Source: Gammaproteobacteria bacterium
GTDB taxonomy: Bacteria > Pseudomonadota > Gammaproteobacteria > JAAEPA01
Assembly: GCA_024222475.1 (NCBI GenBank)
Contig: JAAEPA010000156.1
Coordinates: 1-49,933, forward strand
Direction of reading: 5' to 3'
DNA length: 49,933 nucleotides
In this document: in pieces, positions 13,986-36,577 of the stretch
Layout of the letters: the number at the start of each line of letters is the position of its first letter
Position numbering within the stretch: position 1 is the stretch's first letter
The notes under the pieces: model-generated
The model's database searches: none
What the model was told of the DNA's origin: nothing
Seen by the model: the letters and a program-made list of their open reading frames with translations, nothing else
Made by a program: the position numbers and the translations under genes

Positions 13986-14062
13986 GTTGCATCTACCCCC
14001 ATTCTCGGACAGCCTCACTACAATTTCAATTTATTCACAAGCACTGAGCAACGGGATACGGC

Positions 14063-14716
14063 GTGAATAATAGCGATTTCCTTGCGTTTTCAATCGAATC
14101 TGCCCTCAACGCCTATCTCGGCTTAGATCCGGATGTGGTCGCCGTGATGAAGGAAATCGATGGGCGGTTGATTGAGTTTAAAATTGTCGGTGCGGATATA
14201 TCGCTTTTCTTTATTCCGCTGGATGGGCGGGTTCTGGTTAGTAGTGAGTCTGATGATAAACCCGATGCTATAGTGAGTGGCTCGCTCTTGACCCTAACCC
14301 GTGTTGGACTCAGTGGCAATTCCAGTAAGGTGCTCTCGGGAACAGAGATAGAATTCAGTGGTGATCTAGATGTGGGTCGCACCTTCTATGAGGCCCTGCT
14401 CAGTGTGGATATCGAGTGGGAGGAGCTGCTTGCCGGTAGGATCGGAGACGTAGCGGCGCATCAATTCGGTAATGTAGTGAGGGATATCAGGGCATGGATC
14501 GGTCGTAGTCGGGATTCATTGCGCATGGACTTATCTGAGTACCTACAAGAAGAATCGAAAATCGTTCCGACCCCAGTAGAGATCGAGGTATTTATGGACG
14601 GAGTCGATACCCTGCGCAGCGATGTAGATCGGTTGCAAGCCAGGGTGGATCGAATGACGGTAAATTCGGTAGAGGGGCTGCCGGCAGAACCGGCTCGAGA
14701 TCAGCACGGTAAGTGA
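14063..14716 (+). CDS. ubiJ: Ubiquinone biosynthesis accessory factor UbiJ (SCP2 domain)
   Basis: 217 aa. Position between ubiE and ubiB. SCP2-like N-terminal half. GTG start. Confidence 0.7.
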   Translation: MNNSDFLAFSIESALNAYLGLDPDVVAVMKEIDGRLIEFKIVGADISLFFIPLDGRVLVSSESDDKPDAIVSGSLLTLTRVGLSGNSSKVLSGTEIEFSGDLDVGRTFYEALLSVDIEWEELLAGRIGDVAAHQFGNVVRDIRAWIGRSRDSLRMDLSEYLQEESKIVPTPVEIEVFMDGVDTLRSDVDRLQARVDRMTVNSVEGLPAEPARDQHGK

Positions 14717-14728
14717 TCTTATTGCTCG

Positions 14729-16294
14729 ATGTTAACCCCATCCCAGATTTTACGTTTGATATACATCAATATCGTGTTGGTGCGTCATGGTCTGGATGAG
14801 GTCGTTTTTACAATCCACTTATTTCGGCCCATCCGTTTTGTACTCTATCTTTTCCCATGGCATTGGTTCCGCCGCAATGGTGTACCTCATGGGGTGCGTA
14901 TTCGTCGCGCATTGGAAGATCTCGGGCCCATTTTTATCAAGTTCGGCCAGATGTTATCTACTCGTCGAGATATTTTGCCGGATGATATCGCTGATGAACT
15001 GGCCAAACTTCAGGACAGTGTGCCGCCATTCCCCGGTAAGCAATCAATCCTAGCCATTGAAAAATCCTTTGGTAAACCCGTAGACCAGGTCTTCAAGTTC
15101 TTCGACGAAATCCCGATGGCCTCAGCCTCGATAGCCCAGGTTCACCGGGCCCTGCTTGATGATGATTCCGATGTTGTCGTCAAGATCCTGCGTCCAGGCA
15201 TCGAGCGAGTGATCCGGCGTGATCTCGGTCTGTTGCATGTCATCGCTGGGCTGGCGCACCGTTATTGGCGAGATGGTCGCCGTCTGCGACCTAAAGAGGT
15301 GGTTCTCGAATACGAGAAAATTATCTTGGACGAGCTAGATCTCATGCGTGAGGCGGCCAATGCGAGTCAACTGCGGCGCAATTTCGAAAACTCCCCTGAT
15401 CTTTATATTCCTAAGATATTCTGGCCGTACACACGTCGTGATGTGTTGGTCATGGAACGAATTAAAGGTATACCTATCAGCGATATCGAGCAGCTACGAG
15501 TCCATGGAATAGACTTGAAAAAATTGTCGGCACAGGGCGTCGAAATATTTTTTACCCAGGTATTCCGGCATAATTTCTTTCATGCGGATATGCATCCCGG
15601 CAATATTTTCGTCTCTTATGATCACCCGCAGGATCCTCAGTATCTAGCGGTTGATTTTGGCATTGTCGGTACCTTATCCTCAACTGATCAACGTTATCTT
15701 GCGGAAAACTTCGTGGCGTTTTTCAACCGCAATTACCTACGGGTAGCCGAGCTTCATCTCGAATCCGGTTGGGTGCCGGCGAGCACACGTGTGGATGAGT
15801 TCGAATCTGCGATACGCACGGTATGTGAACCCATATTTCAACGTCCTCTGAATGAGATTTCACTCGGGTACTTGCTATTGAGGTTGTTTCAAACGGCCCG
15901 GCGCTTCAACATGGAGGTACAACCTCAGCTTGTATTACTGCAGAAGACCCTGCTCAATATCGAAGGGCTTGGCCGTCAGTTGGACCCCCAGCTTGATCTT
16001 TGGGATACCGCTAAACCTTTTTTAGAGCATTGGATGGACGAACAGATTGGGGTTCGGGCGATGCTGGCGGGATTCAAAAAAAGCTTCCCAGCGATGGCTG
16101 AAAAGCTGCCACAAATGCCGGAGCTGATTTATTCGGTCATCAAACAGGCCGAGCGAGGACAAGCTAATGTGGAATGGTACAGCGAGGAACTGAAGGTGAT
16201 TCGGAACGAGCTAAACCAAGCCCACCGACGCACTGTCACGGCGATTATTTTTGCCGTGATGCTGCTGTTAACGGGAATGTTCATTTTTCAGTAG
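14729..16294 (+). CDS. ubiB: Ubiquinone biosynthesis regulatory kinase-like protein UbiB (ABC1 family)
   Basis: 521 aa. LGPIFIKFGQMLSTRRD, ASASIAQVH, HADMHPGNIF, C-terminal TM helix. Confidence 0.92.
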   Translation: MLTPSQILRLIYINIVLVRHGLDEVVFTIHLFRPIRFVLYLFPWHWFRRNGVPHGVRIRRALEDLGPIFIKFGQMLSTRRDILPDDIADELAKLQDSVPPFPGKQSILAIEKSFGKPVDQVFKFFDEIPMASASIAQVHRALLDDDSDVVVKILRPGIERVIRRDLGLLHVIAGLAHRYWRDGRRLRPKEVVLEYEKIILDELDLMREAANASQLRRNFENSPDLYIPKIFWPYTRRDVLVMERIKGIPISDIEQLRVHGIDLKKLSAQGVEIFFTQVFRHNFFHADMHPGNIFVSYDHPQDPQYLAVDFGIVGTLSSTDQRYLAENFVAFFNRNYLRVAELHLESGWVPASTRVDEFESAIRTVCEPIFQRPLNEISLGYLLLRLFQTARRFNMEVQPQLVLLQKTLLNIEGLGRQLDPQLDLWDTAKPFLEHWMDEQIGVRAMLAGFKKSFPAMAEKLPQMPELIYSVIKQAERGQANVEWYSEELKVIRNELNQAHRRTVTAIIFAVMLLLTGMFIFQ

Positions 16295-16337
16295 CCCTCC
16301 TAACACCTATATCCTCCAAGAGATAGCTTGAAGAGCT

Positions 16338-18503
16338 ATGGATTTTTCCCCAATATTAGACTCATTGAATGATGCGCAGCGGGCGGCGGTGACCGCATCG
16401 GCAAAACACGTCTTGGTGCTGGCCGGTGCCGGCAGTGGCAAGACGCGGGTGCTGGTGCATCGCATCGCATGGTTGTGTCGGGATAAAGGGATCATACCCT
16501 ATGGCATTCTTGCGGTAACCTTTACCAATAAGGCCGCCGCCGAGATGCGTGCCCGGGTTGAGGCTCTGTTAGGGATGTCATCCACAGGGATGTGGATGGG
16601 TACATTTCACGGTTTGTCTCATCGGTTGTTGCGCTCCCACTGGCAACAAACAGGGCTACCTCAGAACTTTCAAATCTTGGATTCCGAGGATCAGTTTCGG
16701 GTGATTCGCCGAGTGACCAAAGGCTTAGGTCTTGACGAAGCCAAGTGGCCACCACGGCAATCTCAATGGTTCATCAACGCCAACAAGGATGAAGCGCGTC
16801 GTGCCAAGGATCTAGATTCGAAGGACGGTTCAGTCGATCAGCAACTTATTCGTATTTATTTTGCTTATGAAGAGATTTGTGAACGTACGGGGGTAGTGGA
16901 TTTTGCCGAGTTGCTGCTGCGTTCAGTCGATCTATTCAAGCGGAATTCAGATCTGTTGGCTGATTATCGCAATCGTTTTCGACATATCTTGGTTGATGAA
17001 TTTCAGGATACCAATGCTATTCAATACACTTGGCTCAAGTTGTTGGCTGGGACTCAGGTGCCGATGTTTGCGGTGGGTGATGATGATCAGTCGATCTATG
17101 GCTGGCGGGGTGCGAGAGTAGAAAATATTCACAGTTTTAACTCGGATTTCGACCCTGTTGACACCGTTCTTCTGGAACAAAATTATCGATCGACAGGGAC
17201 GATTCTGGCGGCTGCGAATCATCTGATCCAACATAATACAGGGCGGCTGGGGAAAAACCTCTGGACCCATGACAGTGTGGGTGATCCTATCCATCTATTT
17301 GCCGCCTACAATGAGCAGGATGAGGCCCGCTTCGTGGCGGATCAACTGAAGCAGTGGTTAGACCAAGGCCGCAAACTTAGTGAAACCGCGGTGCTCTATC
17401 GCTCCAACGCCCAATCTCGGGTATTCGAGGAGGTATTCTTTGCCCAACAGATCCCATACCGAGTATATGGTGGATTGCGGTTTTTTGAACGGGCAGAAGT
17501 CAAAAATGCCCTGGCCTATTTGCGCTTGGCGGCCCATCATAGTAACGATGCTTCTTTCGAAAGGATCGTAAATTTGCCGACTCGGGGGATTGGTCAGCGC
17601 ACCTTAGCGGCGCTACGCGAATATTCCAGAGACTATGCTATCCCTTTGTCGGAGGCGACCAGCGTTCTGTCGCAAAGTGGTGAGTTGAATGTACGCGCCA
17701 GCAATGCGCTCAAGCGATTTCTGGCGTTATTACAGACCATGGCGGCGTCCCTAGAGGGACTGTCCTTGCAGGAACAGGTGGAGAATATTATTAAGCTCAG
17801 TGGTCTGAAGGCATATTACGAGCGGGAACCAGGTGCCAAGGCCGTGGACCGAATAGAGAACCTGGGCGAATTGGTCAATGCCGCACGGGAGTTCAATTTC
17901 GATCCGAATCAGTTTGGAGACATGACTCGCTTAGATGCCTTTTTATCCAATGCAGCGCTGGAAGCAGGCGAAGGACAAGGAGAGGCCTGGCAGGATTGTA
18001 CTCGACTCATGACCTTACATTCCGCAAAAGGGCTGGAGTTTCCGCTGGTCATCATGGTAGGGATGGAGGAGGGTTTGTTTCCGCACAGCATGTCTACTCA
18101 AGAATCCGGGCGACTGGAGGAAGAGCGCCGACTATGCTATGTAGGTATAACTCGGGCGAGGGAAAAACTGATTCTGAGTTATGCTGAAAACCGTCGTCAC
18201 TATGGATCGGTAAAATACTACCCTCCCTCTAGGTTTTTGCGGGAAATTCCCGAGCAGCTGTTGGTGGAACTCAGGGCTGGTGTAACCATAAGTCCCACCT
18301 TGATACCAAGACAAAAAACGGTTTTGAAACCCGGTAATGAATCTCCTTTTAAGATTGGTCAACGGGTTGAACATGCAGGGTTTGGCGAAGGATTGGTCAC
18401 CGAGTGCGAAGGAGTAGGTTTGCATGCACGCGTGCAGGTGCGGTTCGAGCGTGGAGGAAGTAAATGGCTGGTGCTGGAGTATGCTAAGCTTCAGCCCTTG
18501 TAA
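16338..18503 (+). CDS. uvrD: DNA helicase II (UvrD)
   Basis: 721 aa. Walker A AGAGSGKT, DEFQDTN, LEQNYRS, TLHSAKGLEF, and the UvrD-type C-terminal motif GQRVEHAGFGEG...KWLVLEYAKL. Confidence 0.92.
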   Translation: MDFSPILDSLNDAQRAAVTASAKHVLVLAGAGSGKTRVLVHRIAWLCRDKGIIPYGILAVTFTNKAAAEMRARVEALLGMSSTGMWMGTFHGLSHRLLRSHWQQTGLPQNFQILDSEDQFRVIRRVTKGLGLDEAKWPPRQSQWFINANKDEARRAKDLDSKDGSVDQQLIRIYFAYEEICERTGVVDFAELLLRSVDLFKRNSDLLADYRNRFRHILVDEFQDTNAIQYTWLKLLAGTQVPMFAVGDDDQSIYGWRGARVENIHSFNSDFDPVDTVLLEQNYRSTGTILAAANHLIQHNTGRLGKNLWTHDSVGDPIHLFAAYNEQDEARFVADQLKQWLDQGRKLSETAVLYRSNAQSRVFEEVFFAQQIPYRVYGGLRFFERAEVKNALAYLRLAAHHSNDASFERIVNLPTRGIGQRTLAALREYSRDYAIPLSEATSVLSQSGELNVRASNALKRFLALLQTMAASLEGLSLQEQVENIIKLSGLKAYYEREPGAKAVDRIENLGELVNAAREFNFDPNQFGDMTRLDAFLSNAALEAGEGQGEAWQDCTRLMTLHSAKGLEFPLVIMVGMEEGLFPHSMSTQESGRLEEERRLCYVGITRAREKLILSYAENRRHYGSVKYYPPSRFLREIPEQLLVELRAGVTISPTLIPRQKTVLKPGNESPFKIGQRVEHAGFGEGLVTECEGVGLHARVQVRFERGGSKWLVLEYAKLQPL

Positions 18504-18568
18504 TATACCGCTCTGTATTGGGAATCAAGGTTCTTCATGGAAATCCTTAGAATCCGAATCATAACAAC

Positions 18569-19678
18569 ATGAAAAGACGTGATTTTATAAAAACAGCAGG
18601 CTCTGGTTCCCTGATCATGGGTACTGTACTGGCCGGTTGTAGTAATAGCGAGCAGGGGGGGGTGACAAAGGCCCAACAAACCCGTGAGCGACATGAATGG
18701 AAAATGGTGACCACCTGGCCTAAGAACTTTCCTGGCTTGGGTACGGGGGCCGAGTTTCTTGCGGATTTGATAGGAAAGATGTCTGACGGACGCATCAAGG
18801 TCAAGGTGTACGGCGCGGGTGAACTTGTGCCGGCGTTTGAAATCTTCGATGCCGTGTCTCAGGGGGTGGCCGAAATGGGGCATGGAGCAGCTTACTATTG
18901 GAAAGGAAAAAATGCAGCACTGCAATTTTTCGCTTCTGTTCCTTTCGGATTGACAGGCATGGAAATGAATGCCTGGTTGTACCATGGTGGTGGTATGGCG
19001 CTATGGCGTGAGGCCTATGAACCCTTTGGTTTGGTGCCTGCTGCTGCAGGAAATACCGGTGTACAGATGGGGGGCTGGTTTAATAAAGAAATCAATTCCG
19101 TGGATGATCTCAAGGGACTGAAAATGCGTATCCCGGGTATTGGGGGCGAAGTTTTGAACAGGGCAGGGGGTACGCCGGTAAATCTACCCGGTGGTGAGCT
19201 GTTTACCGCACTGCAGACGGGAGCCATAGATGCAACTGAGTGGGTAGGACCATACAATGATCTGGCATTTGGTCTCTATCAGGCCGCTAAATACTACTAT
19301 TATCCAGGTTGGCATGAGCCAGGTACGACGCTGGAATGCATGGTAAACAAAAAGGCATTCGATGATCTTGCAGATGATCTTAAGAGCATCGTCCTCAATG
19401 CCTGTCGAGTAGCAAACCAAGATATGCTGGCGGAATATACTGCCCGCAATAATGACGCTTTGCAAACCTTACTCCATAAGCATAACGTGGATATGCGAAG
19501 GTTTCCGGTTGAAGTGCTTGAAAAGCTGCGTAGTTTATCGGAGGAGATTGTTTCACAGTTGGCTGAACAAGATCCTTTGGCCAAACGTATCCATGATTCA
19601 TACCATAAATTTGGACTAAAAGTTAGTAAATGGCATGATATTTCAGAACGGGCCTACCTCAATGCCCGATCATCTTGA
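18569..19678 (+). CDS. TRAP transporter substrate-binding protein (DctP family, COG4663-like) with a Tat/lipoprotein signal
   Basis: 369 aa. Twin-arginine motif KRRDFIK and lipobox LAGC. Conserved GNTGVQMGGWF, GLKMRIPG, AIDATEWVGPYND, KYYYYPGW. Confidence 0.85.
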   Translation: MKRRDFIKTAGSGSLIMGTVLAGCSNSEQGGVTKAQQTRERHEWKMVTTWPKNFPGLGTGAEFLADLIGKMSDGRIKVKVYGAGELVPAFEIFDAVSQGVAEMGHGAAYYWKGKNAALQFFASVPFGLTGMEMNAWLYHGGGMALWREAYEPFGLVPAAAGNTGVQMGGWFNKEINSVDDLKGLKMRIPGIGGEVLNRAGGTPVNLPGGELFTALQTGAIDATEWVGPYNDLAFGLYQAAKYYYYPGWHEPGTTLECMVNKKAFDDLADDLKSIVLNACRVANQDMLAEYTARNNDALQTLLHKHNVDMRRFPVEVLEKLRSLSEEIVSQLAEQDPLAKRIHDSYHKFGLKVSKWHDISERAYLNARSS

Positions 19679-19729
19679 TGGCTGTGTTTCAACCCGTTTA
19701 GAACGGAGTAAGCGGCCCGTTCCTTCGTT

Positions 19730-20842
19730 ATGATTCTTCGTAAAAATCCTGGTGCTGGGTTGGAAGGGTTTAAGTCGATGATAGACGAACAGCGCAGACC
19801 GATTGTACTGATCGTTGATGATCAATTTACAGGTCGTAAAATTCTGCAACAATTGATACATAGTATCGATAAAAAACTGCAGATTAAATGTTTTTCAGAT
19901 CCCTTCGAGGCCTTGGGGAGCGCCGCTCAACAGGTTCCCGATTTAGTTCTTACCGACTATAAGATGCCGGATCTCGATGGCGTTGATTTTATACGCAGAT
20001 TTCGAACGACTCTGAACTGTTCCGATGTTCCGCTGGTAATGGTGACCGTGGTCGATGACCCAGAGGTACGTTATCAAGCGCTAGATGCGGGGGCAACTGA
20101 TTTTTTAGTCAGACCTATCGATCAGCACGAATGTCGAGCAAGATGTAAAAACCTGCTGATTCTGCGACGGCAACAGAAAATTATAAAAAACCGCGCAAGC
20201 TGGTTAGAAGAACAGGTCTCCGCGGCTACCTTGCAAATACGTAATAGAGAGAGGGAGACCTTGCTGAGATTGGCCAGGGCTGTTGAATATCGAGATGCAG
20301 GTACGGGTAATCACGTATTACGCATGGCAAAGTACTCTCGTCTGATCGCTGAGCAGCTTGGCCTATCTGCGCTGGAATGCGAAGAAATTGAATTAGCGGC
20401 GCCAATGCATGATATAGGTAAGATCGGAATACCTGATAATATCCTCCTCAAACCTGCTCGCTTGAATCCGGCTGAGCGAAGGGTAATGAATACGCACACC
20501 CTTATTGGGCATGAAATCCTCAAAGATAGTCCCTCTAGATATCTGCAATTAGGGGCTGTGATTGCCTTGGCTCACCATGAGAAATTCGATGGCAGTGGTT
20601 ATCCTAAGGGGTTGCAAGACAATGCGATTCCGCTCTACGCAAGAATCGTGGCTGTCGCCGACGTCTATGATGCTTTAACTACCGCCAGGCCCTATAAATC
20701 GCTCTGGAGTTCTGAGGATTCTATTGAATTCATATGCCAACAGATGGGCCGGCACTTTGATCCTCAATGCACAAAGGCCTTTATTTCTCAAATAGATGCA
20801 GTTCGCGAAATTGAGACGAGTTTGCAGGATGAGCCAAGCTAA
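19730..20842 (+). CDS. rpfG: Response regulator with an HD-GYP c-di-GMP phosphodiesterase domain (RpfG-like)
   Basis: Receiver domain (IVLIVDD...LVLTDYKMPDLDG) followed by HD-GYP (APMHDIGKIGIP, HHEKFDGSGYPKGL, VADVYDALTTARPYK). The start may be the internal ATG at 19778 (MIDEQRRP). Confidence 0.85.
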   Translation: MILRKNPGAGLEGFKSMIDEQRRPIVLIVDDQFTGRKILQQLIHSIDKKLQIKCFSDPFEALGSAAQQVPDLVLTDYKMPDLDGVDFIRRFRTTLNCSDVPLVMVTVVDDPEVRYQALDAGATDFLVRPIDQHECRARCKNLLILRRQQKIIKNRASWLEEQVSAATLQIRNRERETLLRLARAVEYRDAGTGNHVLRMAKYSRLIAEQLGLSALECEEIELAAPMHDIGKIGIPDNILLKPARLNPAERRVMNTHTLIGHEILKDSPSRYLQLGAVIALAHHEKFDGSGYPKGLQDNAIPLYARIVAVADVYDALTTARPYKSLWSSEDSIEFICQQMGRHFDPQCTKAFISQIDAVREIETSLQDEPS

Positions 20843-20962
20843 ACGCAGGCTATACGGCCACTATGAGGTTTTCCGAGAATGGGTCAAGCTATTGCTGACA
20901 AGTGTAGTTTTTTGTTAAAAATACGAAAAACTACAAAATAAAACCAGTAATAATAAGGAACT

Positions 20963-23509
20963 GTGGTGATAAAGGTATTCAAAACCATAACACAGCGCCT
21001 GAAAAATCGCCCTGACAGTGAACACGAACAGGCCATTCTGCGAGTGGTCATTGTGTTTTTGGTGCTGATGTATTTTTTTTCCCCTACCTATATCAGTGGA
21101 ATCGCTGAAATCAATCGTCTGCTACACACTCAAATCGTCATCGTATTGTTATGGGTGTTTTCCTTATTATTATTGTTCAGTGTTTTTCTCAGTCCCGGTA
21201 AGTCACCCATGCGGCGCTTGATCGGGATGGCTGCGGATATCAGTGCCACTTCCTACTTTTTAGCGGTTAGCGGTGTTGTAGCGACCCCTTTGATCGCCGT
21301 CTATTTGTGGGTGACTATGGGCAATGGCTTCAGGTACGGGGTCAAATATCTGGTGGTTTCATCATTTCTAAGTATCGTTGGATTTTCCTTTGCTTTTTAC
21401 TATAGTCACTTCTGGTCTTCCCAGCCCGTATTGGGTGTCAGTATGTTAATCATTCTCGCCGTATTACCGTTGTATATGGCGACCTTATTACGCAAGCTCA
21501 ACCGAGCTTTGGAGCAAGCTAGGCAGGCGAGTGTGGCCAAGTCACAATTTGTCGCCAACATGAGCCATGAACTTCGAACCCCTTTAAACGGTGTCATCGG
21601 TATGAGTGACTTGTTAATGGATACCCATCTGGATGCTGAGCAAAAAGAAATTTCCAGCACTATCCAGGCATCCGCTCATACCTTATTGGGGCTGATCGAA
21701 AAAATTCTGGATATTTCCAAGATCGAAGCCGGTAAGGTCTCTATCGATAAGATGGATTTTGACCTTTATCGTCTGGTGAACAAGATTGCCATGATGTTCA
21801 TTCCGCAGGCTGCAAAGAAGGGGCTGAAACTTACTTCCCACATGGCACCCGAAACACCGTTTCTGATTCATGGTGATGCCAGACACCTGCGACAAGTACT
21901 CATTAACCTAGTTGGAAACGCGATAAAGTTTACCCAGCAGGGTCGAGTGGAGATTCGCGTGCAGCTTGTAGAGGGCCTTTCATCGACGATTCGGATCCGT
22001 TTTGAAATTATCGATACCGGCATCGGTATTCCCGAGCAGGTGCAGGGTCGCATTTTCGACAGTTTTACCCAAGTTGACGAATCGACAACGAGGTGTTTTG
22101 GAGGCACGGGGTTAGGGACTACCATTGCCAAACAACTGATCACGCAGATGGGGGGGGTGATTGGTGTTGATAGTCGTGAAGGTAGAGGTACTACTTTTTG
22201 GTTTGAATTACCTTTCGACCTACAACAAGGCCAGGAAAAGGAGCCTGTCTCGGTGGTTAAGTCATCCGATATTCGTGTGTGGGTACTCGCTGGTAAAAGG
22301 CTCAGGGGTATCCTGGATGTCGGACTCAAGAATTGGGGCATCAGTGCTGAGTTTCCGACCGATGCCGCTGACGCTATCTCTGATTTAATCGAAACGTTTG
22401 GGGAGCACCGGTCCTTTAATGTTGCTATTGTAGAACGCCAGTATCTGAATCATGATCCTGAAGAGTTCATTGGCATATTGTATAGCAAGGGGGTATTGAC
22501 GCAAATGTCAGTGGTACTTATTGAGAACGACCCACAGGCTATTCGGGGTGAGGTCTTGCTGCGCGCGGGGTTCTCTTCAATCTTGCATCTACCTTTAAAT
22601 AAGACGCTGTTGTTTAATGCGATTCACGCCGCCCAAACAGAGCATTTAGATCCAAAGAATGTGGTATCCCTTGCCAAGCATTATCAGCAAAGAGCCGGTA
22701 TAAAACGACTCAATATCTTGGTTGCAGAGGACAATGAGACCAATCAGAAAGTGATTAAAGGAATTCTGGAGCGAGCCGAACATCGTGTGTCTCTGGTCGG
22801 TGATGGTGAACAAGCCCTAGATGCACTCGAGAACGAAGATTGTCTTTTCGATCTGATCATACTGGACATGAATATGCCATCGATGACCGGTTTGGAGGTC
22901 TTTAAGGCCTATCGTTTTATAGATACGAGTGCCGATGTTCCCGTAGTGATCCTCTCAGCAGATGCAACATGTGAGACGAAGCAGGCCTGTCAAGATGCCG
23001 GCGTTAGTTCATTTCTCACCAAACCGGTGGATGCCAGAAAATTGCTAGAAATACTTGCTGATCTGACCCAAGATGCTAAACCACATGAAGGTGAGGGCAA
23101 AGCCGTTGTTCAACTACTCAATAGTAAGTTCTCATCGGAAAAAGGATTAAAGTTAGATGAATATAAGCTCGATACTCTAACTCAACTGGGCTCTGGACCT
23201 GAATTTATAAAGCAACTGGTGGAAGGTTTTCAGCGCGATGGTGAACGACTCATGGAAAATCTACAACATGCTGACGATCAACGTGATTACCTCGAAATGC
23301 GTGATGCAGTACACGCCTTAAAAGGTACTGCTTCCGAGCTTGGTGCGATACAGTTAATAAAACTGTGTAAGGATGTTGAAGGGCTCAAACCATATGATAT
23401 GGTCTCCGATAAGCCAGGGTTGCTAATAGAAGAAATCAATGAAATATTTGTTAATACTTGTTTAACACTAAATAACTATGTCCGGCGAAAATGTAGAAAA
23501 GCCCGCTAA
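20963..23509 (+). CDS. rpfC: Hybrid sensor histidine kinase (RpfC-like): multi-TM input, HisKA/HATPase, degenerate REC, REC, Hpt
   Basis: 848 aa. N-terminus [12 protein letters not shown], ~5 TM helices with GNGFRYG. H-box [11 protein letters not shown]-box [25 protein letters not shown] (ILVAEDN...LIILDMNMP). Hpt ([12 protein letters not shown]). GTG start. Confidence 0.85.
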
Positions 23510-23646
23510 TGTGCTTCATATGTGGCTATCTAAACACTGCATATACAAGGAAGGAATTACCATATTGGATTCCAGCCTTTTCAGTAAATATGAAGATGCT
23601 CTATAGGGTCGTTCGAGGCTGAATGACTAATAATCCTGACAGTGTT

Positions 23647-24537
23647 TTATAATTGTTCAACACTGCGTAGATTAGTCTTTTGACAGGCAAGTTTGTGTTG
23701 CTTAGCGACAAGCCTCTCCATCATGCGTAAATCGCGTTTTTCCAATCGAAGAGCAGCGTCGACCCAAATGCCGGTTATTGCCATTAATTCATCATAGGTC
23801 ACTGGATTAACGCAATTTTTCGCGGCCCGAAAGGCCCGGTATCCGTTAGTGGATTTGCCCTCTTTTCTAATGTAATCGTACACCGCCATTTCCCCTTGTT
23901 GATCCTCGGCGAGGATATCAACTACTCCCATGTCGTATAGTTCTTCCGCGGAATAGAGTTTCCCGCTCAAAATCATCTTTTCAGCCCTAACGCTGTCGAG
24001 CTTACGTGATAGTAAGCTGTATGCTCCCATTCCGGGAAAGAGGTTAAAGAGAATTTCAGGAAATCCCATTTTGGTTCCGCGCTCGGCGATCAAGACATCA
24101 CTGGCCAAGGCACATTCGAAACCTCCTCCTAAGGCATCGCCCTGTACTAAAGTAATATGAGTAATGTCCCGGTGAAAGTTTTTCATCTTGATGTACAAGG
24201 TATCGATACAGGTCTTGGCGTAGCTAAAAAGGCCGGCACGGTCCTTCGTCAAAATGAGGTTTCTGAATAGATCTAAATCTCCTCCAAGATTGTATACGCC
24301 GGGGGTATCAGAGGCCAAAATAGCAAACCTGATATTTTGCTCGTGTTGCACGGAAAGTTTCGTAAACCAATCTTGTAACTCACTGAGTAATTTTGTGTTA
24401 AAGCACGGGCGAGGATTGGCATGCATGTAACCCCACGCAAGATCATATTTTTCGTCGTAGTAAGTACTCAATTCAGAATAACGGGGGGGGGTGGAGCTAA
24501 CGGTTGAAAGGGTGGTACTGAGTACACTGTTCATCAT
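23647..24537 (-). CDS. rpfF: Crotonase-family DSF synthase (RpfF-like enoyl-CoA hydratase/thioesterase)
   Basis: 296 aa. Long collinear similarity to my recollection of Xanthomonas RpfF: NLGGDL.LF, LVQG.ALGGGFE.AL, G.PE.LF.LFPGMGAYS, MIL.G.LYSAE.L, I.WVD.A..L. Both catalytic Glu positions are conserved (GGGFE, FPE). Convergent with rpfC. Confidence 0.85.
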   Translation of the reverse strand: MMNSVLSTTLSTVSSTPPRYSELSTYYDEKYDLAWGYMHANPRPCFNTKLLSELQDWFTKLSVQHEQNIRFAILASDTPGVYNLGGDLDLFRNLILTKDRAGLFSYAKTCIDTLYIKMKNFHRDITHITLVQGDALGGGFECALASDVLIAERGTKMGFPEILFNLFPGMGAYSLLSRKLDSVRAEKMILSGKLYSAEELYDMGVVDILAEDQQGEMAVYDYIRKEGKSTNGYRAFRAAKNCVNPVTYDELMAITGIWVDAALRLEKRDLRMMERLVAKQHKLACQKTNLRSVEQL

Positions 24538-24915
24538 TGGATTAACTCCTTACTGATATATTCGGTATAAGGTCAACCGATGGTCAATAGCTGAATTATA
24601 TTTGACACATTTCTAACCGCTCAATATGTTTCCGAGGAATGCTTCTTCCACTTCGGTTAAGTAAGGGGGGATTAGCTTGTTACGTCAAGTGTGATTGGTG
24701 ATGAACGGGGTTGTTTTGGGGGTAAGAGGCGGGCAAATTCTTACGGATGTTATTTCTAACATGTGATCTTTAGTCACAACTTTATCCTTCACATCCGGTT
24801 TTCATTTGGTTTCGTATGCTAAGAACTTGACAAATGGCCAGATCAGACTCGCGATTTTAAGTACAATCTGGTGATTTAGGGTATCCCAACAGCTTAAGTA
24901 TCGGCGCTAAGAAAA

Positions 24916-26298
24916 TCAGCCACGATATACGATTGTAGGCAACCAGGTTGCCAGTTGTGGCCATATAGATAATAAAATAAGGGCAAAAACCTGAATGATG
25001 ACGAATGGTATGACACCACGGTAAATATGCTGGGTACTGATTTCTGGAGGCGCCACACCGCGTAGATAAAATAGAGCGAAACCAAACGGTGGAGTCAGAA
25101 AGGAGGTTTGCAGGTTGATTGCTATCATTATGCCAAGCCAGACGGGATCTATTCCCATACCCAGTAAAATTGGACCGATGATCGGAACGACTACGAAAGT
25201 AATTTCGATAAAGTCCAGGACAAATCCCAGTATAAACATGACTATCATGACCATGAGCATTGCACCGAATACTCCACCAGGTAATTGAGTCAACAGGGTA
25301 TGCACCGCTTCATCCCCACCAAGACCACGAAATACCAAGGAAAAAATCGAGGCGCCGATCAGGATTAAGAACACCATGCTGGTGATTCTCACTGTCGATT
25401 GCATAACATCGCGGAGTTGCTGAAGATTTAGTTTTCTATTGATGCTGGCCAATAAAATAGCGCCCATCGCTCCCACGGAAGCTGCTTCCGTGGGTGTTGC
25501 AAGTCCCCCCATAATTGAGCCGAGCACCGCAACGATCAATAAAAGGGGTGGTATCATGGCCTTGAAAATTCGGGCTGCCAATTGAGTTGCATTTAGGGTG
25601 CGCTCATTGATTGGAATGGCAGGCATATTATTGGGCCTTAGCAAGGCTTCGGCCAAAAGATATGCAAGATAGAGCAGCACTAGCATTGCTCCCGGAATGA
25701 CCGCACCAGCAAACAAATCGCCCACTGAAATGGTTTCCGGCGAGAAAACTCCTTGATCTAGTTGGGCTTGTTGATAGGCGGATGACAACACATCTCCGAG
25801 CAGGACCAATACGATAGAAGGGGGTATGATTTGACCTAAGGTGCCGGAAGCGCAGATCGTGCCACAGGCGATCTGCGGAGCGTATCCCCGTTTGAGCATA
25901 GTGGGCAGCGATAACAAACCCATGGTCACCACTGTCGCGCCGACGATTCCGGTACTGGCTGCCAGTAATATGCCAACGATCAACACCGAGTACCCTAAGC
26001 CGCCCCGCAAACATCCGAACAACAATGCCATCGATTCGAGCAGCTTCTCAGCGACTTTAGATCGTTCAAGCATGATTCCCATGAATATAAACAGCGGCAC
26101 GGCGATGAGGATCTCATTGGTCATGATACCGTACAGCCGATTTGGAAGAGCCAGCAGAAATGAGGGATCAAAATGGCCTACCAGTGTGCCCACCCAGGCA
26201 AACAGCAGAGAGGTTCCCGCTAGCGTGAAAGCTACCGGATACCCGGCCAGCAGAGCTAAGACCACCGATAGGAACAATACCATCGCTGCCCAGCCCAT
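24916..26298 (-). CDS. TRAP transporter large permease (DctM family)
   Basis: About 460 aa of polytopic membrane protein. The ORF track extends to 26388, but the ATG at 26298 forms a TGATG overlap with the dctQ stop and begins the hydrophobic N-terminus MGWAAMVLFL. Confidence 0.85.
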   Translation of the reverse strand: MGWAAMVLFLSVVLALLAGYPVAFTLAGTSLLFAWVGTLVGHFDPSFLLALPNRLYGIMTNEILIAVPLFIFMGIMLERSKVAEKLLESMALLFGCLRGGLGYSVLIVGILLAASTGIVGATVVTMGLLSLPTMLKRGYAPQIACGTICASGTLGQIIPPSIVLVLLGDVLSSAYQQAQLDQGVFSPETISVGDLFAGAVIPGAMLVLLYLAYLLAEALLRPNNMPAIPINERTLNATQLAARIFKAMIPPLLLIVAVLGSIMGGLATPTEAASVGAMGAILLASINRKLNLQQLRDVMQSTVRITSMVFLILIGASIFSLVFRGLGGDEAVHTLLTQLPGGVFGAMLMVMIVMFILGFVLDFIEITFVVVPIIGPILLGMGIDPVWLGIMIAINLQTSFLTPPFGFALFYLRGVAPPEISTQHIYRGVIPFVIIQVFALILLSIWPQLATWLPTIVYRG

Positions 26299-26831
26299 CA
26301 GCTTTTGACCGTTGGGTCTAGGGTATGATCGATAATGATGAGTAGACTGTTGCTGGCCTGCGACAGTCCCTGCAACGTGAGTAGGCATGCCATTAGGGGA
26401 ATGCTGGATTTAAGAGCGAATACCAAAGGTAGGCCACCGGCCTCGCGGGAACCTTCAAGCAGAAGCCAAGAGCTAACTACGTAGCTTGCGCTGGTCCACA
26501 ATATGTATAAACAAGTTGGTATGAGCAGTAACAGAGCGCCGAGTAGATTGACCCATGCCTGTGCGCTCGGTGCCATGTTACGGTAGAAGATATCGACTCT
26601 TACATGAGCGTCGTGCTTCAGGGTGTAAGCGGCCCCGGCCATAAAGGCCAAGGCATGCATGTAGGTGACAGACTCCTGCATTGCGATCCAACCGGTATCG
26701 AACCCGTAGCGAAGTACGACCACTAAGAAGGTGATGCAGACCATGCCCAAGGTTAACCAAGAAATGATCAATCCTACTCGTTCATTTAGGCTGTCTATTA
26801 CAGTGACTAATTTTGGCAGTATGTTAGTCAT
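26298..26831 (-). CDS. TRAP transporter small permease (DctQ family)
   Basis: 177 aa with four predicted TM helices. Translationally coupled to the large permease gene. Confidence 0.8.
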   Translation of the reverse strand: MTNILPKLVTVIDSLNERVGLIISWLTLGMVCITFLVVVLRYGFDTGWIAMQESVTYMHALAFMAGAAYTLKHDAHVRVDIFYRNMAPSAQAWVNLLGALLLLIPTCLYILWTSASYVVSSWLLLEGSREAGGLPLVFALKSSIPLMACLLTLQGLSQASNSLLIIIDHTLDPTVKS

Positions 26832-26973
26832 TTGATGGCGTGATGGTACTGTGCTGGGGTTGGTGATCGAGGCACAGTACCAGAAGAAGCTATTATGCCT
26901 GTAGTCGCAACAAGGTTATCATCTCATCAGACTTCGTACCCCTTAACATCCATCATAACTTCGCACTCTATTG

Positions 26974-29676
26974 ATGTCTGACAGTAAATCATCCGCTAAA
27001 CCGTTCATTATCGTAGACGGTTCGTCCTATCTTTATCGGGCCTATCATGCCATGCCGGCATTATCCAATTCTCATGGCGAGTCGACCGGTGCTATCTACG
27101 GTGTTGTTAACATGTTAGGAAAGCTAGTCAAGGAATATGAGCCGAAATATTTTGCTGTGGTATTTGATGCTAAAGGAAAAACCTTCAGAAACGAGCTTTA
27201 TCCTGATTACAAGGCCAATCGCCCTCCCATGCCCGCAGACTTACGGTCTCAGGTCAAACCTCTAAAAGACTTGATTCATGCCCTGGGATTCCCGTTATTA
27301 GAGGTCCAAGGTGTAGAGGCCGACGATGTTATCGGGACCCTGGTGAGCCAAGCGGTGAAGCTCGGCTGGTCAGTGTTGATATCTACGGGCGATAAAGATA
27401 TGGCCCAATTGGTCAATGATCAGGTAAGTTTGGTGAACACCATGGATAACACTCGACTTGACCGGTCAGGGGTAGTGAATAAATTCAAAGTTCTTCCGGA
27501 ACGGATTGTTGACTATCTTGCCCTTGTTGGCGACAAGGTGGATAACATTCCTGGAGTGCCAGGTGTAGGTCCGAAGACTGCGGTTAAGTGGTTGGCTGAA
27601 CATGGATCAATGCAAGAGATTATCGATCAAGCGGATAAGGTGAGGGGTAAAATTGGTGAGAAGCTGAGGGCTACAGTTGATCAGTTGCCCTTATCGCATC
27701 AACTGGCAACCATTAAATGTGACGTGGAACTTGAGCTCACCCCCTCGGATCTACGAAGAGGGAGCGCTGATCCGGTAGCGCTTCGTGAAATTTACGGAAA
27801 TCTAGAATTCAGAACGTGGTTGGCTGCACTCGGGGGAGAGCAGACCAATAATGATCCAAAAAAGAGCCAAGGAGACTATCGGATAATCCTTTCCTTGGCT
27901 GATCTAGAGGCTTGGTTGTCACTTTTGGAACAGGCGCCGGTGTTTGCATTTGATACCGAAACGACCAGCCTCAATTATATGTCGGCCAGGGTCGTGGGTG
28001 TATCCTTTGCTGTAAAAGAGGGTGAGGCGGCCTACCTGCCTATTGGACACGATTATCCGGGGGTGCCTGAACAATTGGATGAGACAGAGGTGTTCGGCAG
28101 GCTTAAGCGCCTGTTGGAAGATCCTGCTATCAAAAAACTGGGGCATAACCTTAAGTACGATAGGAATGTCTTGGCCAATCACGGTATTGCCCTAACCGGC
28201 ATCGCCTATGACACCATGTTGGAGTCCTATGTGATCAACTCCACTGCCAATCGGCATGATCTGGACACGCTTTGTCAGAAGCATTTGCAGCACAGCAACA
28301 TCCATTTCGAGGACGTGGCGGGCAAGGGTTCGAAGCAGATTACCTTTGACAAGGTGGATCTGGACAAGGCTACGGCATATGCTGCGGAAGATGCGGATAT
28401 GACGCTGAGGCTGCATCAGCATTTCTGGCCTCAACTGAGGTCCCTGGAGAATCAATGCAGACTCTACGAGTCCATCGAAATACCCCTAATCGAAGTGCTA
28501 TCAAGAGTAGAACGAAATGGTGTACTGGTGGATGCGCAACGTCTGCAAGGCCAGAGTCGGGAACTGGCCGCGGTCATGGACAGGCTTGTTTCCGAGGCCA
28601 CGGAGCTGGCGGGAGAAAGCTTTAACCTCTCATCGCCCAAACAAATACAGAAGATTCTTTTCGAGCGTCAGGGGTTACCCATCATACGCAAAACTCCAAA
28701 GGGTCAACCCTCAACGGCGGAGGATGTACTGCAGGAACTTGCCCATGACTATCCATTACCGCGATTGATCCTCGAACACCGTTCTTTGAGCAAACTCAAG
28801 TCAACCTATACTGATAAGTTACCAAAACAGATAAATCCACGGACCGGACGGGTACATACCTCATATCAACAGGCGGTGGCCTCTACCGGTCGACTTTCAT
28901 CCACAGATCCGAATCTGCAGAATATTCCCATCCGAAGCATGGAGGGTCGGCGCATTCGTCAGGCCTTTATAGCTTCACCAGGGCACAAGATATTGGCCGC
29001 TGACTATTCACAAATCGAATTGCGTATCATGGCCCATCTATCCGGTGATGAAGGTCTGTGTCAGGCCTTCAGTCGCGGACTGGATATCCATTGCGCAACC
29101 GCATCAGAGGTATTTGCCGTTTCAGTAGAGGACGTCGATGCAGCTCAGCGACGTGCGGCCAAGGCGATAAATTTCGGGCTAATCTACGGCATGTCGGCGT
29201 TTGGGTTGGCCCGACAGCTAGGTATCACACGCCCTGCGGCTCAGGAATATGTGAATTCGTATTTTTCCCGTTATCCGGGAGTCAAGAAGTATATGGATCA
29301 AACCCGTGAGAAGGCCCGGGAAATAGGGTATGTGCAGACTTTATTTGGTCGACGTTTGTATCTGCCGGAAATTAACTCCCGAAATGCTCAGCGGCGCCAG
29401 TATGCGGAGCGAACCGCGATCAATGCCCCGATGCAGGGAAGCGCTGCTGATATTATCAAGCGGGCCATGATCGATGTCGATGCTTGGATAAGAGCCTGCG
29501 TCCCGGATGCTCTAATGATCATGCAAGTACATGATGAATTAGTTTTTGAGGTTGCTGAACAGGACGTAGAACGCGTTCTTTCAGCGGTTAAAGAGCGGAT
29601 GGTCTCCGCGGCGGAACTGACGGTGCCTTTGGAAGTGGATGCAGCAATCGGCCTTAACTGGGATGAAGCCCACTGA
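26974..29676 (+). CDS. polA: DNA polymerase I
   Basis: ~900 aa. 5'-nuclease N-terminus, 3'-5' exonuclease motif FAFDTETTSL, polymerase motifs DYSQIELR, RRAAKAINFGLIYG, QVHDELVFE. The ORF opens at TTG 26971; the ATG is at 26974. Confidence 0.95.
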   Translation: MSDSKSSAKPFIIVDGSSYLYRAYHAMPALSNSHGESTGAIYGVVNMLGKLVKEYEPKYFAVVFDAKGKTFRNELYPDYKANRPPMPADLRSQVKPLKDLIHALGFPLLEVQGVEADDVIGTLVSQAVKLGWSVLISTGDKDMAQLVNDQVSLVNTMDNTRLDRSGVVNKFKVLPERIVDYLALVGDKVDNIPGVPGVGPKTAVKWLAEHGSMQEIIDQADKVRGKIGEKLRATVDQLPLSHQLATIKCDVELELTPSDLRRGSADPVALREIYGNLEFRTWLAALGGEQTNNDPKKSQGDYRIILSLADLEAWLSLLEQAPVFAFDTETTSLNYMSARVVGVSFAVKEGEAAYLPIGHDYPGVPEQLDETEVFGRLKRLLEDPAIKKLGHNLKYDRNVLANHGIALTGIAYDTMLESYVINSTANRHDLDTLCQKHLQHSNIHFEDVAGKGSKQITFDKVDLDKATAYAAEDADMTLRLHQHFWPQLRSLENQCRLYESIEIPLIEVLSRVERNGVLVDAQRLQGQSRELAAVMDRLVSEATELAGESFNLSSPKQIQKILFERQGLPIIRKTPKGQPSTAEDVLQELAHDYPLPRLILEHRSLSKLKSTYTDKLPKQINPRTGRVHTSYQQAVASTGRLSSTDPNLQNIPIRSMEGRRIRQAFIASPGHKILAADYSQIELRIMAHLSGDEGLCQAFSRGLDIHCATASEVFAVSVEDVDAAQRRAAKAINFGLIYGMSAFGLARQLGITRPAAQEYVNSYFSRYPGVKKYMDQTREKAREIGYVQTLFGRRLYLPEINSRNAQRRQYAERTAINAPMQGSAADIIKRAMIDVDAWIRACVPDALMIMQVHDELVFEVAEQDVERVLSAVKERMVSAAELTVPLEVDAAIGLNWDEAH

Positions 29677-29883
29677 GCGGGGACCGCCCCGATCATTCTA
29701 CCGTACATTTTAATTTCAACCCCAGAAGGACCGCTTATCGATAATATCAAGCCTCCTATCATTAACCAGGCAACGCGTTGAGTGAATTGGTTTATAACTA
29801 ACACACGCCAGTCGCCCATGAAGAAAAAAGCATCTGAGGGCTAATGTTGCATCATGGCTTTATGAAAATGACTTGGTTTGAAA

Positions 29884-29910
29884 GAACTTTCTTGGTAGAC
29901 GATTGTCATA
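29884..29910 (+). promoter_or_regulatory. SigmaE/AlgU-type promoter candidate (GAACTT-N16-TCATA)
   Basis: GAACTT at 29884-29889, a 16-nt spacer, then TCATA at 29906-29910. Compare the envelope-stress sigma consensus GAACTT-N16/17-TCnnA. It lies just upstream of the structured RNA candidate. Confidence 0.35.
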
Positions 29911-29916
29911 GATTTT

Positions 29917-30039
29917 AGCGCTGTAGCCCGGCGCTTCCCGCTTCCCTCCCTGAGCGGGTAAATGGCTCGGCCCCCCCAAGCCGAGCCTTTTCGGCCCCGG
30001 TGTTTTTCTCCCCATTTTCACCGGGGCTTTTTCTTTTTA
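29917..30039 (+). ncRNA. Candidate sRNA in the polA-engB spacer (positional analogue of Spot 42/ErsA)
   Basis: Four consecutive hairpins: AGCGC/GCGCT (29917-29935); CCCGCT/AGCGGG with loop TCCCTCCCTG (29937-29958); GGCTCGGC/GCCGAGCC with loop CCCCCCAA (29964-29987); GCCCCGGTG/CACCGGGGC (29994-30027) followed by TTTTTCTTTTT. No ORF is present. Confidence 0.45.
29994..30039 (+). terminator. Rho-independent terminator
   Basis: 9-bp GC-rich stem GCCCCGGTG/CACCGGGGC with a 16-nt loop, followed by a T-rich tract (30028-30039). The T-tract is present only on the + strand. Confidence 0.6.
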
Positions 30040-30146
30040 CTGGTTTTCACTGTCGCCAATTCCCTTTCGACCGCGTATTCAAAGTGTAAAGCTGATTGAG
30101 CGGTCCTCGGACAGGCTCCTAGGGCTACCGAGATTTAATCCCAGAA

Positions 30147-30755
30147 TCAACGGTCTATTAACCATAAGTCTAATACCTCATAAGCCTCTTCTAGCCCCTT
30201 GCGTTTGGTTGCAGAAAAGGTTTGAATGCTTATGTTTTTTCCTTTAATAGTGTTTTGAACTCGTTGGAGGATGTTGAGCGCGGGTCCTCGTCTGAATTTG
30301 TCGGCTTTATTCAGCAAAATGTGTATTTCGTAGTTATAATATTGGCACCACTCAATCATCTGCCAATCATAAGGCGTCAGAGGGTGACGGATATCCATTA
30401 TCAGTAGGATTCCACGAAGAGATTCCCGGTGCTCAAAGTAACATTCCATTAAGTTGCGCCATCGTAGGCGTGTCGATTCAGGTACCTTGGCATAACCGTA
30501 ACCGGGTAAATCCACCAAACGATGCAGAGGGTCGATTTGAAAGAAGTTGATCATTTGGGTGCGCCCAGGGGTTTTACTGATACGGGCTAGAGCCTTTTGT
30601 CTACTCAGGGTATTCAAGGCGCTTGATTTGCCAGAATTAGATCGGCCCGCAAAGGCTACCTCCGCGCCAAGATCCTCCACGAGCTGGTTGCCGCGAGTGG
30701 CACTGGTAAGAAATTTGGCTTGTTCATAGTTAATCTTTATTGCCATACGGGTCAA
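30147..30755 (-). CDS. engB: Ribosome biogenesis GTP-binding protein EngB/YihA
   Basis: 202 aa. G1 GRSNSGKSS, G3 DLPGYGYA, G4 NKADK. Conserved polA-engB neighbourhood. Confidence 0.9.
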   Translation of the reverse strand: MTRMAIKINYEQAKFLTSATRGNQLVEDLGAEVAFAGRSNSGKSSALNTLSRQKALARISKTPGRTQMINFFQIDPLHRLVDLPGYGYAKVPESTRLRWRNLMECYFEHRESLRGILLIMDIRHPLTPYDWQMIEWCQYYNYEIHILLNKADKFRRGPALNILQRVQNTIKGKNISIQTFSATKRKGLEEAYEVLDLWLIDR

Positions 30756-31002
30756 TAGTGTTGTGTTATGTGTATGCGATTAGATTGCTGGATCTAGGCA
30801 ATAGCTTATGCCTTCTCTATATGTTGTCACTACAGAGAATATCGAAATCCTGCTCAACGCACCAGCTCTTGGGTGGCTGCCGAAGCCACTAGGATTTTGC
30901 GAGCAAGGCGCTATTATGGTATACAGATCGTTTAGTGAGGTTTTCGCGTTCATCGTGTGCATAAAGAATACGTTTGGGGTACTGAATATGGGGATTTTTA
31001 AC

Positions 31003-31602: not shown

Positions 31603-31671
31603 ATACCACCGTTCGATAGAACACAGCCTTCTAGGCGCTAGGGGTGGGCGCGGGATGCACTTTACCCCTGC

Positions 31672-31693
31672 CTAGATCACTACAGTGATCTAG
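31672..31693. repeat. Solo palindromic repeat unit (CTAGATCACT-AC-AGTGATCTAG)
   Basis: A 22-nt perfect palindrome sharing the CTAGATCACT core of the repeat family. It lies between cytochrome c4 and dsbA and could also act as a transcript-end hairpin. Confidence 0.55.
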
Positions 31694-31726
31694 CTTAAAA
31701 GATAAACAGCATCGAATAGTCCAATT

Positions 31727-35953: not shown

Positions 35954-35968
35954 ACAAGGAGTCATCAA

Positions 35969-36559: not shown

Positions 36560-36577
36560 GGCTTCTAGGTGACTGTC

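Follow-up and report, generated by a model that had tools for sequence, protein, structure and literature searches.

A probable DSF-family signalling module with a long RpfC kinase in an uncultured gammaproteobacterial lineage

Three adjacent genes resemble the Xanthomonas rpfF, rpfC, and rpfG genes

We analyzed a 49,933-nucleotide contig (JAAEPA010000156.1, positions 1 to 49,933 of the forward strand; hereafter the window) from the gammaproteobacterial metagenome-assembled genome (MAG) GCA_024222475.1. Three adjacent genes between positions 19730 and 24537 very probably form a diffusible signal factor (DSF)-family, Rpf-type cell-cell signalling module that is the part-for-part homologue of RpfF, RpfC, and RpfG of Xanthomonas campestris (Xcc). 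This assignment draws on the presence of the genes, the order of their domains, the catalytic and sensor residues, the phylogenetic placement of the putative synthase, and the fact that other lineages conserve the triad. A previous examination of the letters without database searches (the sequence-only reading) had proposed a three-gene DSF cluster here, and we found the three open reading frames (ORFs) at exactly the positions it gave:

19730-20842, + strand: rpfG-like response regulator (370 amino acids [aa]; Pfam REC and HD-GYP)
20963-23509, + strand: rpfC-like hybrid sensor kinase (848 aa, GTG start; Pfam and full-length alignment)
23647-24537, - strand: rpfF-like crotonase, putative DSF-family signal synthase (296 aa; Pfam ECH_1, NCBIfam, PDB matches, and tree)

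As judged from the ORF strands, rpfG and rpfC are convergent with rpfF, the arrangement known from Xanthomonas, with a stop-to-stop gap of 137 bp between rpfC and rpfF. The three proteins are collinear with their Xanthomonas counterparts, with identities of 40% for RpfF, ~45% for RpfC (input and kinase core), and 45-46% for RpfG.

The crotonase groups with RpfF proteins

The Pfam matches of the crotonase (ECH_1, 78 bits; ECH_2, 38 bits) place it in the crotonase/enoyl-CoA hydratase fold. As ECH_1 is a generic family, these matches would also fit an ordinary β-oxidation enoyl-CoA hydratase whose gene happens to lie beside those of a hybrid kinase and an HD-GYP regulator unrelated to it. Comparison with the PDB using phmmer yielded four high-scoring entries, 7zq7 (194 bits), 3m6m (RpfF, 190.5 bits), 6dgn (RpfF, 188.8 bits), and 5fus (187.9 bits), whose identities are the depositors' names. 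The next best crotonase scored 56.6 bits and all others ≤57 bits, and this difference from the ~190 bits obtained with RpfF speaks against an ordinary hydratase. 6dgn and 5fus, which represent the Burkholderia/Cronobacter-type RpfF associated with Burkholderia diffusible signal factor (BDSF), belong to the same crotonase family as the window protein (188-189 bits, 39% identity) and have the same catalytic residues. PDB entry 5wyb, which we take to be DspI, the Pseudomonas aeruginosa cis-2-decenoic acid synthase of the crotonase superfamily, gave 46 bits, within the range of ordinary hydratases; the window crotonase is therefore not of that type. In NCBIfam, the protein scored 377.5 bits against PRK08788 (cut-off 177), and Joint Genome Institute annotation labels homologues "DSF synthase" and "sensor histidine kinase RpfC."

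In a maximum-likelihood tree computed from 39 sequences (31 RpfF-like and eight FadB/ECH), a branch of length 3.4 with 100/100 support split the RpfF-like proteins from the FadB/ECH proteins, which included this genome's two other crotonases. The window protein lay inside the RpfF clade and not with the β-oxidation hydratases, in agreement with its earlier description as RpfF-like. Within the clade, it belonged to an 11-member subclade (99/98) with proteins from Thiocystis, Thioalkalivibrio, Acidithiobacillus, Candidatus Thiodiazotropha, Arenicellales, and Thiobacillus. Both the Lysobacteraceae clade (Xanthomonas, Stenotrophomonas, and Lysobacter) and the RpfF/RpfR-type clade, in which the 6dgn-type proteins group with Trinickia, are separate from this subclade. 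Given the well-supported separation from FadB/ECH, the RpfC-specific input and sensor motif of the neighbouring kinase (below), and the conservation of the triad in many lineages, we consider it exceedingly improbable that the crotonase is an ordinary hydratase next to unrelated regulators.

The residues expected of a DSF synthase are in place. In the alignment with Xanthomonas RpfF, both catalytic glutamates, E141 (GGGFE) and E161 (GFPE), are identical and carry the same numbers, and both had been picked out by the sequence-only reading. The pocket residues G85, L136, G137, G138, M170, W258, and L276 are likewise identical to those of Xcc RpfF at the same numbers; for Xcc, we used the catalytic and pocket residues given in PMC9864630. 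The two catalytic codons lie as follows:

24115-24117, - strand: codon of catalytic E141
24055-24057, - strand: codon of catalytic E161

The kinase has an RpfC-type sensor, membrane input, and phosphorelay

The sequence-only reading described the second protein as a multi-transmembrane hybrid kinase with REC and Hpt domains. Consistent with this, the first 180 residues are hydrophobic, with about five membrane segments predicted by hydropathy, and are followed by Pfam matches to HisKA (residues 192-257), HATPase_c (304-419), Response_reg (585-698), and Hpt (751-807). The parts that correspond to Xanthomonas RpfC are:

20963-21031, + strand: N-terminal sensor peptide, residues 1-23, with R16-P-D18-S19-E20-H-E-Q23 directly before the first membrane helix
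21032-21484, + strand: membrane input, residues 24-174, with ~5 transmembrane segments (hydropathy)
21536-22219, + strand: catalytic core, HisKA (H202) and HATPase_c (Pfam)
22715-23056, + strand: canonical receiver, phospho-acceptor D635 (Pfam)
23213-23383, + strand: Hpt domain, H784 (Pfam Hpt, 30.6 bits; cut-off 24.6)

For comparison, we fetched the rpf loci of Xanthomonas, Stenotrophomonas, and Lysobacter using the RpfF fragment from the PDB search. By tblastn, residues 9-431 of the window kinase aligned to Xanthomonas RpfC with ~45% identity (42-46% across the references), while the alignments to the Stenotrophomonas and X. translucens proteins began at residue 4. As the match to Xanthomonadaceae RpfC starts at residue 4-9, it spans the whole membrane input. 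Pfam searches of the input region at E≤10 returned only noise. The input is collinear with that of Xanthomonas, lacks large indels, and has the blocks RRxIGM, PLxxVYLWVTxGNGxRYG, and PLY in common with it. Xanthomonas RpfH is a free-standing copy of the RpfC input, and residues 12-183 of the window kinase matched RpfH at 29% identity (tblastn). The kinase input is thus of the RpfC type, as its assignment to a DSF system requires.

DSF binds a 22-residue N-terminal peptide of Xcc RpfC (Cai et al., PMC5391125), and R15, D17, S18 (where Thr is tolerated), E19, and Q22 of this peptide are essential for DSF sensing (PMC5391125). The corresponding motif is RPDSEHEQ in the window and RADSEHAQ in Xcc (R15-A-D17-S18-E19-H-A-Q22); the Xanthomonas locus that we read has RADTEHAQ. 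All five essential residues are kept in the window protein with equal spacing. Across 20 RpfC sequences, D18, E20, and Q23 were invariant and R16 was nearly so. The Xcc Ala16 is replaced by Pro in the window, as it is in the RpfC proteins of X. translucens and Lysobacter.

The three residues of the predicted relay, H202, D635, and H784, were also invariant in the 20 RpfC sequences. The canonical receiver scored 101.8 bits against the REC domain of RpfC in chain D of 3m6m, which was crystallised with RpfF.

The regulator is an RpfG-like HD-GYP protein

RpfG-like Pfam domains were found at residues 26-138 (Response_reg) and 183-346 (HD_5/HD) of the regulator. Its HD and GYP motifs are intact, as previously noted. 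The phospho-acceptor is D76, HD occupies residues 228-229, and GYP (290-292) ends the HHExxDGxGYP motif at 282-292. The protein is collinear over its full length with RpfG of Xanthomonas and Stenotrophomonas (45-46% identity) and of Thiobacillus (55-56%), and D76, HD, HHExxDGxGYP, and many more positions are invariant in the alignment. The best match among solved structures was an HD-GYP phosphodiesterase (4mcw, 200 bits).

By homology with the Xanthomonas proteins, we infer the signal chemistry, the phosphorelay, the phosphodiesterase activity of RpfG, and the outputs. RpfF would convert a 3-hydroxyacyl carrier-bound intermediate into a cis-2-unsaturated fatty acid by means of Glu141 and Glu161. 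After leaving the cell, the signal would be detected by RpfC through its 23-residue N-terminal peptide and five-helix membrane region. RpfC would then autophosphorylate at H202, and the phosphate would pass to D635 of the receiver, H784 of the Hpt domain, and finally D76 of RpfG, whose HD-GYP domain would break down cyclic di-GMP (c-di-GMP) and thereby shift traits under c-di-GMP control such as surface attachment, biofilm formation, and motility.

Weighing the DSF assignment

Several observations weigh against a DSF module. The MAG comprises 1032 contigs and has an estimated contamination of ~6%, yet the cluster and its flanks all lie on one 49.9-kb contig. RpfC contains an extra receiver-fold domain that is absent from characterised Xcc RpfC, and the two kinases therefore differ in domain count. 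We found no biochemically characterised protein within the crotonase's 99/98 subclade. At position 22, the sensor peptide has Glu in place of the Ala21 of Xcc, and an A21D substitution in Xcc RpfC lowered reporter output to 52% (PMC5391125); the Glu may signify a different ligand preference. Finally, the crotonase scored 227 bits against the NCBIfam RpfF equivalog NF053515, under its cut-off of 550. Known and putative RpfF proteins scored against the two NCBIfam families as follows:

Xanthomonas RpfF: PRK08788, 422.7 bits; NF053515, 598 bits
6dgn RpfF: PRK08788, 396.7 bits; NF053515, 184 bits
Thiobacillus thioparus homologue: PRK08788, 379.7 bits; NF053515, 237 bits

PRK08788 is a broad RpfF-like family and NF053515 is specific to xanthomonads. 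The two models disagree on the window crotonase. As NF053515 also rejects 6dgn RpfF and the Thiobacillus protein and accepts just the xanthomonad type, falling short of it need not argue against DSF-synthase function.

Some of these points bear on an alternative in which the system performs Rpf-type fatty-acid sensing and does not respond to a self-produced quorum signal. The fatty acids that RpfC detects would then be exogenous, supplied by neighbours, a host, or the environment, and the crotonase would act mainly as an acyl-acyl carrier protein thioesterase or dehydratase in lipid metabolism or make a chemically different product. The crotonase subclade has no characterised member, and the sensor peptide departs from Xcc at both A16P and A21E. 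Moreover, in Leptospirillum, the transcriptional response to added DSF or BDSF could not be linked to RpfC/RpfG (PMC8357829). However, the genes for synthase, sensor, and regulator lie close together and have been kept as a set in both Beta- and Gammaproteobacteria, every catalytic and pocket residue of RpfF is conserved, and Pro at position 16 also occurs in X. translucens and Lysobacter RpfC. We consider sensing of exogenous fatty acids alone improbable and continue to favour a DSF-family module in which signal synthase, sensor, and regulator function together.

Relationship to known Rpf systems

The window locus shares with Xanthomonas the convergent arrangement of rpfG-rpfC and rpfF, Glu141/Glu161 and the surrounding pocket, the R-D-S-E-Q sensor residues, the H-D-H relay, and HD-GYP. 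It also differs in several respects. In Xanthomonas, rpfB lies directly upstream of rpfF, whereas dctM occupies this position in the window. The sequence-only reading had described the cluster as lacking rpfB. This is correct for the cluster and the window, where our scan found neither an acyl-CoA ligase gene (rpfB) nor rpfH. It does not extend to the genome, as a FadD/RpfB homologue with 62% identity to Xanthomonas RpfB is encoded on another, short contig (C364:122-1771, - strand), unlinked to the rpf cluster. The ligase locus as fetched has a G+C content of 49%, like the window. The earlier statement that rpfH, which in Xanthomonas lies between rpfG and rpfC, is missing does hold for the genome: since the rest of the genome contains no second RpfC-type input domain, there is no rpfH. 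Other differences from Xanthomonas are that the window RpfC is ~120 aa longer because of a pseudo-receiver, that genes for a tripartite ATP-independent periplasmic (TRAP) transporter flank the cluster, and that RpfF falls in a separate subclade and under the xanthomonad RpfF cut-off of NCBIfam.

Another counterpart is found in Thiobacillus thioparus and T. denitrificans, which have the convergent triad and a long RpfC with the pseudo-receiver (44-45% identity over residues 4-845). The Thiobacillus RpfF and RpfG proteins are 54-56% and 55-56% identical, respectively, to those of the window. Unlike the window, Thiobacillus belongs to the Betaproteobacteria, and its rpf loci have other flanking genes and no TRAP bracket. 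The convergent triad occurs in T. thioparus DSM 505, T. denitrificans, several Thiobacillus MAGs, and Hydrogenophilales and Nitrosomonadales MAGs.

Clusters of rpfF, rpfG, and rpfC are on record in Methylophaga, Leptospirillum, Thiobacillus, and Methylobacillus (PMC4504480). Of these four, our sequence comparison covered Thiobacillus. The published Leptospirillum cluster is unidirectional, with a split rpfC in one species (PMC8357829), in contrast to the convergent cluster here. Cultures of Leptospirillum contained DSF-family compounds (PMC8357829).

In the Burkholderia/Cronobacter type, the sensor is RpfR, a cytoplasmic PAS-GGDEF-EAL protein; the window instead encodes a membrane RpfC kinase and an HD-GYP regulator. 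The neighbours of rpfF in the window are rpfC and dctM, and no rpfR gene is adjacent to it.

Proteins at the level of PRK08788 were present in 7 of the 41 genomes that we sampled around the window's lineage, and in none from the sister genus of the same family. The distribution is therefore patchy.

With our results, an Rpf-type pathway for fatty-acid signalling, complete and apparently intact, is placed in an uncultured gammaproteobacterial lineage that branches deeply. They also reveal that residues identified by experiment in RpfC and RpfF of Xanthomonas are retained far beyond plant pathogens, which supports their use as markers for calling DSF systems in metagenomes. The cluster is well supported but ordinary, as such systems were already known outside xanthomonads, and counting rpfF, rpfC, and rpfG in MAGs is routine in metagenome surveys (PMC12781772). 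Since clusters of this kind had been described before from Thiobacillus, Methylophaga, and Leptospirillum and in surveys of environmental MAGs, the gain in practical terms is modest. One point perhaps worth following up is the pseudo-receiver of RpfC, which is typical of non-xanthomonad RpfC proteins.

A pseudo-receiver distinguishes a long RpfC subtype

The RpfC protein encoded here is of a long (~850-aa) subtype, in which a receiver-like domain that cannot be phosphorylated lies between the ATPase and the true receiver. This extra domain, which the sequence-only reading did not mention, is located as follows:

22274-22648, + strand: extra pseudo-receiver of RpfC, residues 438-562 (alignment gap in Xanthomonadaceae; fold model)

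The window protein has 848 aa and the Xanthomonadaceae proteins 724-734 aa, and the excess of ~120 aa is a single block between the ATPase and the receiver. In the alignment, the proteins of Xanthomonas, Stenotrophomonas, and X. translucens show a gap at this block, and RpfC from Thiobacillus, Hydrogenophilales, and Nitrosomonadales contains it.

Residues 438-562 had no Pfam match, with only noise even at E≤10. In the full-length AlphaFold model of RpfC (mean predicted local distance difference test [pLDDT] score 76), the block is modelled as a (βα)5 fold, parallel to the true receiver at residues 584-703. A separate model of the fragment had a pLDDT of 81 and a predicted template modelling (pTM) score of 0.79. 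When this model was compared with the PDB using Foldseek, all of the top 50 matches were receiver domains (TM 0.61-0.85), among them the atypical or pseudo-receivers HP1043, CikA pseudo-receiver, and CpaE.

The domain lacks the acidic pair after β1, and Leu replaces the conserved Lys. The position of the phospho-accepting Asp is Glu, with Gln, Ala, or Asp in homologues. The most conserved part is a near-invariant stretch of 13 residues that starts with Pro and lies at helix 5.

A word-indexed homologue search with the pseudo-receiver alone returned only nine proteins, and a profile search of representatives was required to see its spread. The profile matched 323 representative clusters at E≤1e-10; many of the listed matches are shorter fragments, and the near-full-length proteins have ~840-860 aa with the domain at ~430-585. 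With 323 clusters, the long RpfC architecture is widespread and not peculiar to this genome. In the full-text literature, we found no paper that joins RpfC with "pseudo-receiver."

A speculative idea, which we put forward with considerable doubt, is that the pseudo-receiver is a dedicated docking module that might, for example, restrain RpfF, with the helix-5 stretch as its surface, leaving the true receiver with the phosphorelay. If so, long RpfC proteins would split between two domains the two jobs done by the single Xanthomonas receiver, and would represent an undescribed regulatory layer outside xanthomonads.

The cluster is bracketed by TRAP transporter genes at a conserved chromosomal position

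The sequence-only reading placed TRAP transporter genes on the flanks of the cluster, and Pfam identified them as dctP, dctM, and dctQ:

18569-19678, + strand: dctP, TRAP solute-binding protein of the TakP/keto-acid-binding type (Pfam DctP), ending 51 bp upstream of rpfG
24916-26388, - strand: dctM, TRAP permease (Pfam DctM)
26298-26831, - strand: dctQ, TRAP permease (Pfam DctQ)

The dctQ-dctM pair, which also gave a match to NCBIfam TIGR00786, lies upstream of rpfF on the same strand. A single TakP-type TRAP transporter is thus split by the rpf triad, with dctP (+) before rpfG and dctQM (-) before rpfF. In PDB comparisons, DctP scored 327 bits against 4pet, 291 bits against 7ug8 ("Ketoacid-binding protein"), and 283 bits against 2hzk. 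Outside the TRAP genes, the cluster is flanked by uvrD and ubiEJB and, at the opposite end, by polA.

The triad occupies the same position, ubiE-ubiJ-ubiB-uvrD ... polA-engB-cytochrome c4-dsbA, on other gammaproteobacterial contigs. On that of the closest relative, Pseudomonadota bacterium MAG064 (L001), RpfF is 91% identical to the window protein and TRAP genes lie on both sides. The same is true of a second contig (L124), with 73% identity for RpfF and 75% for DctP. Two further contigs (L122 and L123), with 72% identity for RpfF and 64% for PolA, have no TRAP genes; between rpfF and polA, they carry a hydrolase, a kinase-like gene, and a LOG-like gene.

The persistence of the bracket in L001 and L124 would fit a single functional unit of rpf and TRAP genes, through co-regulation with keto-acid uptake or transport of a signal-related carboxylate. 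The spacing of dctP and rpfG on one strand, 51 bp apart with nothing in a terminator scan between them, also fits such a unit. In contrast, TRAP genes are missing from L122 and L123, where the triad sits at the same uvrD/polA position, and from the Thiobacillus loci, DctP is nearest to TakP/keto-acid binders and not to any known fatty-acid binder, and dctM is separated from rpfF by 378 bp. A functional unit of this kind is thus unlikely, and as L122 and L123 lack the TRAP genes and DctP is of the keto-acid type, we treat the TRAP bracket as lineage-specific context.

We also considered recent horizontal transfer of the cluster. There was no sign of it from G+C content (45.4% for the cluster and 48.4% for the window) or from the uvrD/polA position, which is kept in distant relatives.

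In the window, the flanking gene order ubiE-ubiJ-ubiB-uvrD (13242-18503) and polA-engB-cytochrome c4-dsbA (26971-32356) is kept even at a PolA identity of just 64% (L122). The PolA of this lineage is just 60-64% identical to that of any named relative, among them records from Thiotrichales, Thiohalobacter, Methylomonas, Sedimenticola, and Woeseiaceae. What lies between uvrD and polA differs from genome to genome, comprising rpf and TRAP genes, rpf and other genes, or, after uvrD in a genome of the sister genus (G002), arsR-like and transporter genes. This sister genome has no rpfF and no orthologous dctP; it keeps ubiE-ubiJ-ubiB-uvrD, and its contig ends 1.9 kb past uvrD, before any polA junction.

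Intergenic regions and other genes in the window

The spacer between rpfG and rpfC is 120 bp in the window and ~270 bp in L001. In the window, it contains a 13-nt inverted repeat at 20903-20935 with 92% complementarity and a 7-nt loop (TGTAGTTTTTTGT / ACGAAAAACTACA). rpfF and rpfC, 137 bp apart in the window, are separated by 3.4 kb in L001 (L001:8889-12296), where the insert consists of two glycosyltransferase-like ORFs (380 and 348 aa) and a methyltransferase-like ORF (301 aa).

Promoter and terminator scans over 18400-27100 gave counts that were not above those of shuffled controls. The convergent gap between rpfC and rpfF yielded no terminator in the scan, just a weak 16-nt inverted repeat overlapping the rpfF stop codon. 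A consensus scan gave one candidate promoter for rpfF, ~60-90 nt upstream of its start, although shuffled sequences give as many such sites and the evidence is weak:

24595-24624, - strand: candidate sigma-70-type promoter of rpfF (TTGAGC-18-TATAAT, 10/12; consensus scan)

The window also contains regulatory and type IV pilus genes:

927-2725, - strand: AlgZ/AlgR-like pair
33829-41821, + strand: fimU-pilVWXY1

The sequence-only reading had reported these genes and offered them as plausible c-di-GMP-linked outputs of the cluster. The genes are present, 9-17 kb from the cluster, and the suggested link is based on their sharing the 50-kb window with it. One of them, at 36569-41821 (+), encodes a 1750-aa PilY1-like protein with a Pfam H_lectin domain at ~258-305 besides the PilY1 propeller. 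In the spacer between polA and engB, positions 29935-30035 (+) match Rfam RF02837 (anti-hemB, Burkholderia RNA 7) with 50.3 bits (gathering threshold 49.5, E 7e-9).

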